A stretch of 63,125 nt of DNA from a virus: UHGV virus genome UHGV-1373161; one strand, written 5' to 3'. The position numbers and the translations under genes are program-made. Of this stretch, positions 2,431 to 14,490 are shown piece by piece. Numbering within the stretch: position 1 is the stretch's first letter; each line of letters opens with the position of its first letter. The notes below the pieces were generated by a model. It ran no database searches, had not been told where the DNA came from, and was given only the letters and a program-made list of their open reading frames with translations.

Positions 2431-5400
2431 CTACCGATACACCGTACCAGGCTGCTCTTCCTGAAGGCGAGGAACGAGCTTCTGGTTGTAGTTCATGCCA
2501 CCAAGGGCAGAACCACGATATTTTTCACGACGAGTGAGAGAGCTGCGGACAGCATCGCCATCGATGCGCATTTCCGGGTACTTCTCAGAGTATGCGCGCA
2601 TCTTATCAGTTATCTGGTCAACTTTCTTCTCATCACCAGCCTTCCAGGCCTTATAAAAATCACCCAGCAGCTTACTGCGCTCTTCGGTGATCGCCGTCTG
2701 CTTGTTCATGTTGTAGCTGTTCATCTTGTACTGCTCGGTGACTTTGGCCGGGGTAAAGCCCATCGCCTGCTTAAAGATATTCCAGCCGTCCAGGTCATCG
2801 ACAATAGGATCACCATTTTTCGTGGTCACTCCCTCGCTGTAATAGCGCCAGGCCTTCATCGGGTCTTTGATTGCCTTCGGCACCATCGTCTCGATACCAC
2901 GCCAGGTGTACCCGTCGTTAATCTGGCTCACACCGCGATACCAGTTGTAAGGGATGCCGGTTGAAGCTCCCAGCACCTGCATTGCCCAGTAAAGGAACTG
3001 TGAATCACCCTCGCGGTCCATATCGTCAGAGCGGAACCACAGATCACCGAAGCCGATACGACCTGACAGCTCGACGCCAGAAAGGTATCCCGGCACGCCG
3101 TCCATCATGATGCCTACCATCTGTTTCGGGAAATACTGCAGCATAGTTTTCTTCAGCTCGACTTCCGGATCTTCGTCGTCGTCGGAGAACATACCGGCAA
3201 TCGCCATCAGCAGGCCATACAGCGGCAAACCACGGATACCGGCATTGAAGGCCAGCGTAGCGCCCAGGCCCAGCATCTGCGTGCGCGCTTCCCGGCGCTC
3301 CTGTTTGTTGCGCGGGTTAATCATTTCATAGGCGGTGTACGCCAGATCGGCCAGCATGTTCAGCGAGTAGTTGCGGAATACCAGCAGAGTTTTTCCAACA
3401 TTGCTGTGCATAATCGCCGGTCGCGAGCTGTTCTGGTAATCATAGTGCGAGTCCCAGGTGAGGTCCGCCGCTTTCCGGATGGCGTTTTTCGGGTCAAGCC
3501 CACGTTTTTTCGCCATGCGGTAGGCCGCCAGGAAAGTGGCCTCGCGGTTGATGCGCTCCGTATGGTGGAACATGAACGACATCGCTGCCATCAATTTAGC
3601 CCTTGTTGGACTGTACTTCACACCACTGTCACCGATCCCCGCCACGTCGTGCGACTGGGTGCGGGTGATAAGCCCCATGCGGTAGGCTTCGGAAACAGCC
3701 CTCTTCTCTTCCGGCGTTACGCGCGCCGACTTCTCGGCAAAGGTGCGCCCCATGCCAAGATCAAACATCGCGCGGTTCAGGTACCCCAGCGCAACCGGAA
3801 TACCTGCAGCTGCGCCCTTATCGTAAAACGCCGCCAGTTTGGCCGGGGCAACGATAAAGGTCTGGCTCATGTTCACCAGCGCGGCCGCCGGGCTTTGCGC
3901 CAGGTACCACATAAACGCGCCCTGGGTGGCAACCTGCGAAATGCGGTTGCTGGTCGGGTTCATCACGTAATCGTGGTTCATGCGCGCCTGCTCGACCACC
4001 AGCCCGCTGCGCACCGGGCTGCGGGTACGCTTCGCTTCCCGTTCCGCCTGATCGATAAGGTCGCCCAGCTCCATGCTGTACTTCATGCGCGCCAGCTGGT
4101 GCGAGCCGTGGAACATGTGCGAGGCAAACGCTCGCAATGCGTCCTCTTCGAAGCCTGCCCGCCCTTTACGGTGGATCCTGGACTTACGCAGGGAATAGTC
4201 CGGCATCGTCTGCAGGTACAGCTGCCACACCTGATCCTGTGTCTGCTGGGTGCCCTCGATGCCCTTCAGCAGATCCTCAATACGCGCCACAAAGTCGGCC
4301 GGAACCTGCTTTCTCAGGTCATTGGACTTGGACACGATGCCGGTTTCCACGTCATAGCCCTCTTTCTCCAGCTGCTTGCGCAGCCTGGTCTGTGCGAAGG
4401 CTGTTTCGGTGCGCGAGAAGCTGACAACCTCGCCAGATCCCTTTTTGCGGGCGGTAACGAAGAAGTCACCGAAGCGCGCCAGCGGGAAGTATGGCCCAGC
4501 CAGGCGATTGCTTTCGAACTCAGATCGCAGCTGGTTGATGCGGGCGCGGCGGTTCCATGCGTCTTTGCGCAGTCCATTGTTGAGCGCTTTCTTGGCGGCC
4601 GCGATAGCGTCCTCTTTGTCCTTACCCTTCAGGCCTTCATCGGTGATGCGCTGCATTTCATCTTCGAACTTGCGGCGTACCTGGCGGGAACGGATATCCA
4701 TCGCCTTTTCCATGTTATCGATGATCGCCTGCTCCTGGGCGTCTGCCAGGCGGGAATACAGGTCGCGCACGCGGTTGTAGATTTGCTTCCCTTCGGGCGA
4801 CAGCGCGTTATACCGCTCACGCAACTTGCCGTGCTCCTCCTTCCGTTTGGCATCGTCCTGTGCCTTCTGGTTCGCCTCATCCCATGCCGGATCACCGCGT
4901 TTCTTCTCGCGCAGCGCGGTAAGGTCGATAGCGTTGAGGATCGACTGGAAGTCTTTGGACGGGTCAACCTGCGCCAGCGTTGAATCGTGCATAAGGCCCA
5001 TCAATTCAGCGTTTTCCTGCGGCTTGCTAACGCGATACTTCAGCCACTTCTGCGACTCCTGGTCTGTTTTGGCGTGCCATTCGTCGCGCAGGGTGTCCAT
5101 CTGCAGCTTAACGTCGGCGTAGCGGCCCAGCGCCGGGATATCTTTCCCCACGCGCTTCAGGATGAAACGGCCAGGGGTGAAGCGGAGAAGCGCAGGCATA
5201 ACCGTCTTCAGCATGTTATCCGGCAGATCGGCCACTTCATCCCAGCGCTGGTTAAACCAGCTCTGTTTCTCTGCTGCCTTCGGCGGATGGCTTGATTCCG
5301 GCGTGCTGAACGATGTGCTGGTGGCCGGTGCTTTCTGATTGCGAATAGCGCCAGCGGCCAGCGCGCGCAGCTGCCCCGGCGTCACCTTGCCCAGCTGAAG

Positions 5401-14490: not shown

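Follow-up and report, generated by a model that had tools for sequence, protein, structure and literature searches.

The viral DNA analysed here, UHGV virus genome UHGV-1373161 (63,125 nucleotides; the whole of this stretch is referred to below as the window), devotes one 12-kb gene to a protein of 4019 residues. We regard this chain as a phage polyvalent protein, a member of the family of giants that go by the names PLxRFG or 'DarB-like', which would be packaged in the virion and injected with the DNA as a multi-enzyme assembly; we place the probability of that reading at about 70%. Six of its domains score above curated cut-offs (Pfam gathering scores and the NCBIfam cut-off): an SLT lytic transglycosylase, a superfamily 2 (SF2) helicase with a Strawberry-notch C-domain, a methyltransferase (MTase), an ADP-ribosyltransferase (ART) of the ART-PolyVal type, LPD39 and PLxRFG. 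A domain with the ParB/sulfiredoxin (Srx) fold and a zincin-like HExxH domain were recognized as well.

The 'polyvalent proteins' of phages and conjugative elements were delineated in 2017 by Iyer et al. as chains of 2-15 disparate domains that are predicted to be co-injected with DNA; the partners of their metallopeptidases in large proteins are lysozyme, ART, SWI2/SNF2 ATPase, adenine methylase and ParB domains, and LPDs (PMC5512222). The giant protein of the window likewise joins disparate activities to the hallmark domains of the class, and its gene lies in a late, virion-gene context. It departs from the commoner pattern in several respects: the usual dyad is LPD36-MTase-helicase, whereas the window has the rarer Strawberry-notch helicase, placed first; its ParB domain is not of the DdrB type; and its HExxH domain is captured by no Pfam model. 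A preliminary description of this DNA had proposed that one injected polypeptide both breaches the wall and acts on DNA or host targets. That idea coincides with the published model of the class, and injection is what we infer for this member also.

Presence in virions has been demonstrated for homologues and is, by analogy, expected here. When purified virions of Burkholderia phage JC1 were analysed by mass spectrometry, the 4515-residue giant homologue ranked second by score and yielded 51 unique peptides; the JC1 paper cites Gill et al. for mass spectrometry of Bcep22 virions. It also confirms the statement, in the preliminary description, that Bcep22-like podophages have a comparable gene of more than 4000 codons. 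In the P22 paper of Casjens and co-workers, proteins of this kind are putative ejection proteins, obliged to be at least partly unfolded during their passage, and gp27 of Pavtok (5007 aa) is named as the longest phage protein known.

The entire 4019-residue chain is devoid of cysteine. Position-specific base composition predicts about 46 cysteines and the Cys content of 22 other open reading frames (ORFs) of the window (0.88%) about 35, and the probability of finding none is about 3e-16. The giants of ZX1, SopranoGao, LASTA, Parlo, PEp14 and GP4 are cysteine-free as well (6/6), as are 94 of 115 giant cluster representatives, with two or fewer cysteines in 108 of the 115. Cysteine is missing also from the proven ejection proteins gp15 and gp16 of T7 and gp50, gp51 and gp52 of N4, whereas there are nine in P1 DarB and two in DdrB. 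The absence of cysteine lends independent support, in the manner of a correlation, to a route that leads through the tail channel and across an oxidising periplasm. Those papers on ejection proteins that were open to search contain no discussion of a cysteine-free signature which, if general, would provide a cheap predictor of ejected proteins that requires nothing but sequence.

Conserved termini and an exchangeable middle

The gene begins with GTG, has GAGGA 8 nt upstream as its ribosome-binding site and starts 24 nt beyond the stop codon of the preceding gene; its 4019 codons form a single ORF with no internal stop, just as had been proposed. Intact ORFs with the same start residues are found in 5/5 isolated phage relatives (ZX1, 3867 aa; SopranoGao, 4369; LASTA, 4433; Parlo, 3764; PEp14, 4914; thus 3764-4914 aa overall), full-length independent homologues number six, and one metagenome contig in ENA (ERZ27229813:k119_151756, 63,244 bp), the counterpart of the window, encodes the identical protein. 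Because the relatives are intact, with the same start, and an exact copy is public, a frameshift or assembly artefact that might have fused shorter genes is excluded; the splitting of the ORF by frameshift or sequencing error, which the preliminary description had raised against itself, was looked for and not seen. Every motif that it quoted was located where it had been placed in the translation (Table 1). Three long antisense ORFs lie entirely within the gene (3406-4983, 525 aa; 12076-13083, 335 aa; 7054-7938, 294 aa; all on the + strand). They are most likely by-products of a G+C content of 55-61%.

Comparison of proteins and of DNA with relatives separates the chain into parts with different histories. 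Its ends are conserved: the N-terminal ~1200 residues and the C-terminal ~1150 residues, comprising HExxH, LPD39 and PLxRFG, show 47-98% identity from genus to genus. Between them, relatives have had the entire central part replaced. In these alignments the N-terminal SLT and Gly/Ala-rich region and the C-terminal HExxH-LPD39-PLxRFG block are the chassis, and what lies between is exchangeable cargo. The closest relative, Klebsiella phage vB_KpnP_ZX1, provides a clean instance: its gene has 96.8% nucleotide identity over 91% of the length, and its product (QZE12048.1, 3867 aa, genus Lastavirus) has the same position, start, SLT, ParB, Strawberry-notch-type helicase, MTase, HExxH, LPD39 and PLxRFG, but in the slot at residues 2674-2875 that holds ART-PolyVal in the window it has a GNAT acetyltransferase (ZX1 residues 2591-2723), the two alleles being otherwise 95-98% identical. 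ZX1 also differs in lacking the module at residues 1196-1327 and in a 69-aa insertion near residue 1026. The Parlo giant has an internal GNAT too.

The preliminary description took the architecture to be new, and that did not hold up: the ZX1 gene is 97% identical and the domain set was published between 2011 and 2019. Nor is the architecture unique, since two metagenomic representatives show the same domain order, one of them (P0095) as helicase-MTase-ART-HExxH-LPD39-PLxRFG and the other (P0092) as SLT-...-ParB-...-helicase-MTase-HExxH-LPD39-PLxRFG. The genome announcement of Parlo had already listed helicase, methyltransferase, N-terminal transglycosylase and acyltransferase domains, seen before in Bcep22-like DarB homologues, and the ZX1 paper noted that each of the four Lastavirus phages has a PLxRFG giant, the ZX1 copy differing from the others.

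Table 1. Features of the giant gene and its neighbourhood; window positions are those of the 63,125-nt stretch and residues those of the giant protein.
Feature	Residues	Window positions	Strand	Basis or remark
Lysis cassette: endolysin, holin-like protein, unknown protein, Rz-like spanin		366..2204	-	PHROGs
Giant gene, putative polyvalent virion protein, about 440 kDa	4019 aa	2431..14490	-	ORF list and translation
SLT lytic transglycosylase, catalytic E65-S66	46-141	14068..14355	-	Pfam PF01464, E 7.5e-15, 55 bits (cut-off 21.3)
Motif AEQESSFNP	62
Gln-rich linker (150-290), then Gly/Ala-rich, weakly hydrophobic conserved region (275-603)	150-603	12682..14043	-	Composition; phrog_938
Three small globular modules	880-1035, 1040-1200, 1196-1327	10510..11853	-	phrog_15406, phrog_32895
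Third of these modules, ~132 aa	1196-1327	10510-10905	-	No counterpart in ZX1 or other Lastavirus giants
ParB/sulfiredoxin-fold domain (model)	1340-1476	10063..10473	-	AlphaFold and Foldseek
Motif DGHHQWLAA	1431
DGHHQW core of the ParB/Srx motif	1431-1436	10180-10200	-
Conserved helical module (1477-1620), then Arg/Gly/Ser/Gln-rich low-complexity linker (1621-1790)	1477-1790	9121..10062	-	Homologue comparison; composition
SF2 DExH helicase/translocase with Strawberry-notch-type C-domain; Walker A GTGTGKT, DESH	1836-2395	7306..8985	-	Pfam
Motif GTGTGKT	1847
Motif DESH	1934
Amino-MTase, gamma-class (motif I before NPPF)	2440-2640	6571..7173	-	Pfam MTS, 31 bits (cut-off 23)
Motif VLEPSAGHG	2472
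Motif NPPF	2534
ART-PolyVal cassette (domain 2697-2849)	2674-2875	5866..6471	-	Pfam PF18760, E 6.9e-21, 75.9 bits (cut-off 31.2)
Motif YHGT	2706
Motif GAFFTSD	2736
Zincin-like HExxH domain; H2927, E2928, H2931, E2993/E2994	2863-3055	5326..5904	-	Motif conservation; profile homology
Motif HELFH	2927
LPD39	3092-3293	4612..5217	-	Pfam PF18858, E 6.3e-59, 199 bits
PLxRFG C-terminal domain, PLARFG at 3336, all-alpha	3332-4005	2476..4497	-	NCBIfam NF032893
Hydrophobic helical hairpin (hydrophobic stretch from 3740)	3740-3768	3187-3273	-	Kyte-Doolittle, AlphaFold
Upstream virion-module genes		14515..19656	-	PHROGs; synteny with ZX1, SopranoGao, Parlo, GP4
Virion structural protein, 393 aa, no Cys		14515-15696	-	Just upstream of giant gene
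Virion structural protein, 416 aa, no Cys		15983-17233	-	Just upstream of giant gene
Free-standing GNAT (acyl-CoA N-acyltransferase), 154 aa		17237-17701	-	PHROGs
Integrase ORF		60877-62142	+	Size and position correspond to annotated ZX1 integrase

Domains and their predicted activities

Whether the domain matches might be spurious was examined by profile search, and SLT, helicase, MTase and ART, all proposed in the preliminary description, pass their Pfam gathering scores. The SLT domain also resembles MltC and IagB, weakly. Long Gln-rich linkers had been noted beyond it, and residues 101-300 are indeed 17% glutamine; the Gly/Ala-rich region that follows matches phrog_938 (E 7.5e-78) and is conserved in Parlo and PEp14. 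The three small globular modules gave no match in Pfam when the protein was searched in ~500-aa tiles at E up to 1. The third is closest, at 51% identity, to part of the 'DarB-like' giants encoded by 23 phages of Ralstonia, GP4 and Gervaise among them.

The ParB/Srx-like domain was recognized by structure. The AlphaFold model (mean predicted local confidence, pLDDT, 80.9) retrieved, among solved structures in the PDB, 14 top Foldseek matches that are all ParB N-domains, Noc, Srx or Atu1540, at probabilities of 0.94-1.0 but with modest E-values (6e-3 to 0.1), the next match having a probability of 0.06 or less; the tiled Pfam search and a sequence-profile search of the PDB found nothing for this domain. 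The assignment of residues 1340-1476 to the ParB/Srx alpha+beta fold, made from the model, stands. What qualifies the earlier claim is the motif: in DGHHQW, glutamine takes the place of the superfamily's key arginine, a nucleotide-binding and catalytic residue, and it does so in all the homologues that cover the position (37 aligned fragments) but two, which carry arginine. This substitution would imply an altered chemistry or binding without catalysis. The domain is not a ParB of the DdrB type, a profile comparison with P1 DdrB (hhalign) returning a probability of 0.1%. The helical module that follows is common to SopranoGao, LASTA, PEp14 and GP4 and is present in 44 of 115 giant relatives.

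The helicase is matched by two Pfam models, ResIII (31.9 bits, cut-off 22.5) and Helicase_C_4 (35.4 bits, cut-off 30.5). The Pfam match of the MTase spans residues 2470-2580, and there are weak matches to M.TaqI; its TP...NPPF pattern agrees with the description in PMC5512222, and the enzyme is probably of the DNA N6-adenine type. The ART has an intact H2707/Y2766/D2799 triad, whose columns are conserved in 57/64, 57/64 and 63/64 homologous segments, and the profile match together with the retained residues (the His of strand 1, the Tyr of strand 2 and the Asp of strand 5 in that clade) places it in the H-Y-D clade, which Iyer et al. group with diphtheria toxin, cholix toxin and the PARPs (PMC5512222). 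The kinship with diphtheria toxin that had been suggested is thereby upheld as to clade, but GAFFTSD, although conserved, does not provide the catalytic tyrosine, which is Y2766. The nearest ART among isolated phages, in the F116 giant, is 37% identical; biochemical data for any ART-PolyVal domain were not found in the literature.

The HELFH motif, put forward as a possible zincin, belongs to a domain whose key residues are near-invariant. HExxH is present in 148/151 homologues, EExxAY (E2993/E2994) follows in 97-100% of them, and H2910, at the end of the strand that precedes the HExxH helix, is 81% conserved. A word-indexed homologue search returned nothing for this region (elsewhere its matches were never longer than ~1250 residues), and exhaustive HMMER searching produced 271 cluster representatives, nearly all within proteins of 2000-5700 residues. 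The profile of the 151 sequences aligns by hhalign with residues 2201-2346 of the virion RNA polymerase (vRNAP) of phage N4 at 84% probability (E 7.5e-6, against E 0.23 for the reversed-sequence control); a profile of 17 sequences gave E 2.5e-4. These residues constitute CTD-C1 of N4 vRNAP, a subdomain that bears a zincin-type HExxH motif according to a 2026 cryo-electron microscopy study (PMC13434306), and Iyer et al. had assigned the same segment to a metallopeptidase superfamily (PMC5512222). A zincin-like domain, probably homologous to N4 vRNAP C1, is well supported by conservation and profile alignment. The same profile showed no relationship to the P1 DdrB peptidase (hhalign).

The remaining C-terminal ~940 residues consist of LPD39, which has been flagged as possibly enzymatic (PMC5512222), and PLxRFG, which matches NF032893 with 683.5 bits (cut-off 100) over positions 1-679 of the 681 in the profile and so belongs to that family. 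Compared with solved structures, the AlphaFold model of PLxRFG resembles none of the known ejection-protein folds, and an hhalign comparison of LPD39-PLxRFG with N4 vRNAP left the C2 region of the latter unmatched. A transmembrane hairpin had been claimed for this part of the chain. The region and a hydrophobic hairpin are there, the latter modelled as a confident helix-turn-helix within the all-alpha domain and constituting the sole Kyte-Doolittle peak above 1.4 in the giant protein. Its 19-residue maximum of 1.43 is moderate and below the usual threshold, and a transmembrane hairpin is rejected as a firm claim; membrane insertion is possible.

The DarB question, modes of action and alternatives

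The preliminary description saw in the protein an extension of a P1 DarB core, a proposition that did not survive comparison. DarB (2255 aa), carried in the virion as the giant protein probably is, likewise has an MTase of adenine type joined to an SF2 helicase. In contrast, its order in Pfam terms is N-terminal N6_Mtase/Eco57I followed by an SNF2-type helicase, the reverse of that in the window; it is without SLT, ParB, ART, zincin and PLxRFG; and it belongs to the head of a myovirus, where it depends on DarA, Hdf, DdrA and DdrB, which are absent from the window. When the two proteins are aligned, only the MTase core is matched (DarB residues 91-298, 22% identity, E 9e-6); the helicases yield no significant match (best E 0.12). 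Weak local similarity (E 0.033) was also seen between residues 1731-1760 of DarB and residues 2920-2957 of the giant, the region of the HExxH helix. DarB is without HExxH and the similarity may be due to chance or represent a degenerate remnant.

Collinearity with DarB is found elsewhere in the family. The SopranoGao giant has an MTase N-terminal to an SWI2/SNF2 helicase and aligns with DarB in the methylase and in each of the two helicase lobes (E 6e-22, 3e-18 and 1e-8), and LASTA and PEp14 have the same Eco57I-then-SNF2 arrangement; the window, ZX1, Parlo and Skulduggery have a Strawberry-notch-type helicase followed by the methylase. By domain type and order, two non-orthologous methylase-helicase pairs fill one slot within one genus. 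Their occupation of the same slot speaks for the combined activity as the object of selection: the module of the window would work like DarB without being a DarB. The giant gene matches PHROG 10089, labelled 'DarB-like antirestriction' (2594 bits), and its relatives are labelled 'PLxRFG protein' or 'DarB-like antirestriction' in GenBank. For giants of the GP4 type the DarB-like label is, on domain content, misleading: the GP4 giant (11292-20966) has SLT, LPD3, HExxH and LPD38, and lacks PLxRFG, helicase, MTase and ART.

Other giants of phage virions delimit what may be expected of the protein. Those of the Bcep22-like phages (Bcep22 gp75; JC1 gp69, 4515 aa; Ralstonia GP4 gp68, 3224 aa) are, like that of the window, encoded by the last gene of a syntenic virion module and have in common with it the N-terminal SLT, an HExxH domain (38% identity), small modules and the lack of cysteine, but overall similarity is confined to a few modules. 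N4 vRNAP (gp50, 3500 aa) is likewise giant, cysteine-free and built as beads on a string, is encapsidated and is ejected through a tail channel of ~35 Å; in both proteins, what lies beyond the HExxH domain is a large C-terminal region, all-alpha and without known relative in structure. It differs in that its cargo is an RNA polymerase, in having no SLT and in a C2 region that is not detectably related to LPD39-PLxRFG. T7 gp16 (1318 aa), an internal core protein also without cysteine, shares the SLT-type transglycosylase at the N-terminus; after ejection it refolds and arrives at the inner membrane. It has a third of the giant's size and carries no enzymatic cargo, and beyond the SLT the giant showed no similarity to the gp16 helical body, either in a sequence search of the PDB or, for the C-terminal model, in fold.

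With these precedents, one can picture a beads-on-a-string chain that would be made late in infection and of which a few copies would be packaged inside the capsid. Packaging might proceed via the conserved C-terminal block, by analogy with N4 vRNAP, in which the region holding the homologous HExxH domain is required for encapsidation. The chain, at least partly unfolded, would be expelled through the tail with the DNA, which the absence of cysteine fits, and its SLT would cut peptidoglycan locally, as T7 gp16 does. Once in the cytoplasm, the helicase-methyltransferase would translocate on the entering DNA and methylate it in cis, blunting restriction, so that the antirestriction function of P1 DarB would be delivered by a non-orthologous module. 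The ART may ADP-ribosylate host targets, the ParB/Srx-like domain may bind nucleotide or DNA, and the zincin-like domain may serve packaging or cut the chain into separate effectors. A literature search found no functional study of any member of the giant family.

Several observations weigh against so full an account. The GP4 giant, having neither methylase nor helicase, shows that antirestriction is not family-wide. The mass spectrometry of virions concerns distant Burkholderia phages, whose giants are without PLxRFG, and none of it comes from Lastavirus; the avoidance of cysteine is correlative evidence. The ParB/Srx domain departs from the conserved-arginine pattern (GxxR or DGHHR). The HExxH domain has, in effect, no Pfam match (the best is WLM, E 0.15) and none in a sequence search of the PDB, the PLxRFG domain has no Pfam or PDB sequence match, and the hairpin falls short of the transmembrane threshold.

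Some of these facts would be at home with a protein that is mainly structural, a counterpart of T7 gp16 or N4 as ejectosome or conduit, essential for infection, with termini that build or anchor the trans-envelope channel and enzymes that are dispensable passengers. It is the termini alone that are conserved across genera; the N-terminal SLT mirrors that of gp16; GP4 retains SLT and HExxH without the DNA-modifying module; and the Gly/Ala-rich and hydrophobic hairpin segments, in a chain as free of cysteine as T7 gp15 and gp16, could belong to a conduit. Against this, the PLxRFG model bears no resemblance in fold to solved ejection proteins, separate internal virion and structural proteins encoded upstream could supply the conduit, and all the active-site motifs of the enzymes have been kept, which argues for selection on catalysis. 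This is the main rival to the polyvalent-protein reading, with which it is compatible rather than mutually exclusive; as the principal explanation we consider it unlikely.

Plain orthology to P1 DarB, with the other domains as mere accessories and protection from type I restriction as the one function, would account for the annotation of the relatives and for the presence of a helicase and an adenine-type MTase with an alignable core, but is contradicted by the reversed order and the unmatched helicase, by the different Pfam sets (N6_Mtase/Eco57I and SNF2 in DarB, MTS and ResIII/Helicase_C_4 here) and by the DarB-collinear module in the same slot of SopranoGao, LASTA and PEp14, which signifies non-orthologous displacement. 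Moreover, the helicase-MTase pair makes up about 20% of the giant protein, and the nine cysteines and myovirus partners of DarB have no equivalent; we judge such orthology quite improbable. More improbable still, to the point of being hardly credible, is a protein that acts, late and uninjected, in the producing cell only, for example by methylating progeny DNA and degrading the wall from within. The gene does adjoin the lysis cassette, and a muralytic domain and a methylase are at hand for such tasks, but endolysin, holin and spanin are encoded separately by the phage, purified virions contain abundant homologues, and a 440-kDa, cysteine-free, beads-on-a-string design, needless for a cytoplasmic enzyme, is that of known ejected proteins.

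The phage, its virion module and wider meaning

By its sequence relationships the window is a Lastavirus-like Klebsiella podophage. Partial nucleotide matches of the giant gene extend, beyond ZX1, to SopranoGao, LASTA/SJM3 and Serratia phage Parlo. Because its integrase ORF matches that of ZX1 in size and position, the phage is probably temperate, and the window looks like a complete temperate Lastavirus-like genome; a search for tRNA genes within it found none. The placement of the giant gene in the ejection-protein position of a podovirus-like virion module, as first proposed, is confirmed by its neighbours: it closes the module, with the lysis cassette (in which the source contig has Pfam Muramidase and Phage_lysis matches) directly downstream according to PHROGs and synteny, and the module has the same gene order in Parlo and in GP4, a Bcep22-like phage of Ralstonia. 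Upstream, the module also comprises an ORF of 95 codons, an internal virion protein of 582 residues with four cysteines and a tail fibre gene. The cysteine-free virion proteins of 393 and 416 residues are candidates for co-ejection. On the source contig the 416-residue protein matches Peptidase_S74, a tail-fibre chaperone. The free-standing GNAT gene is found at the same place in the virion modules of ZX1, SopranoGao, LASTA, Parlo and Ralstonia GP4.

Work published between 2011 and 2019 had already covered the class, the domains that it draws on and the injection presumed for it, and a near-identical gene is in GenBank. What the window adds are natural experiments, namely the exchange of ART for GNAT at ~97% identity, non-orthologous dyads in one slot and the family-wide replacement of arginine by glutamine in the ParB motif, and leads, namely an HExxH family that is not modelled by Pfam and is linked to N4 vRNAP, and a PLxRFG fold without solved relative. 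Klebsiella phages are candidates for therapy, and a predicted injected ADP-ribosyltransferase in a temperate phage is worth flagging.

It is tempting to go further and to regard the giants and N4 vRNAP as versions of one ancient podoviral cargo-ejection chassis, defined by the shared HExxH domain, an alpha-helical C-terminal anchor and strict avoidance of cysteine, with effector cassettes that are swapped fast. We offer this tentatively, at rather less than even odds. The interchangeable cassettes would then include RNA polymerase, methylase-helicase pairs of the DarB and Strawberry-notch types, ART, GNAT and nucleases. If so, exclusion of cysteine would identify, from sequence, proteins destined to be threaded through phage tails and across an oxidising periplasm, and the swaps of ART for GNAT and of one dyad for another among near-identical alleles of Klebsiella phages would be signs of an ongoing arms race against the defences of the host.

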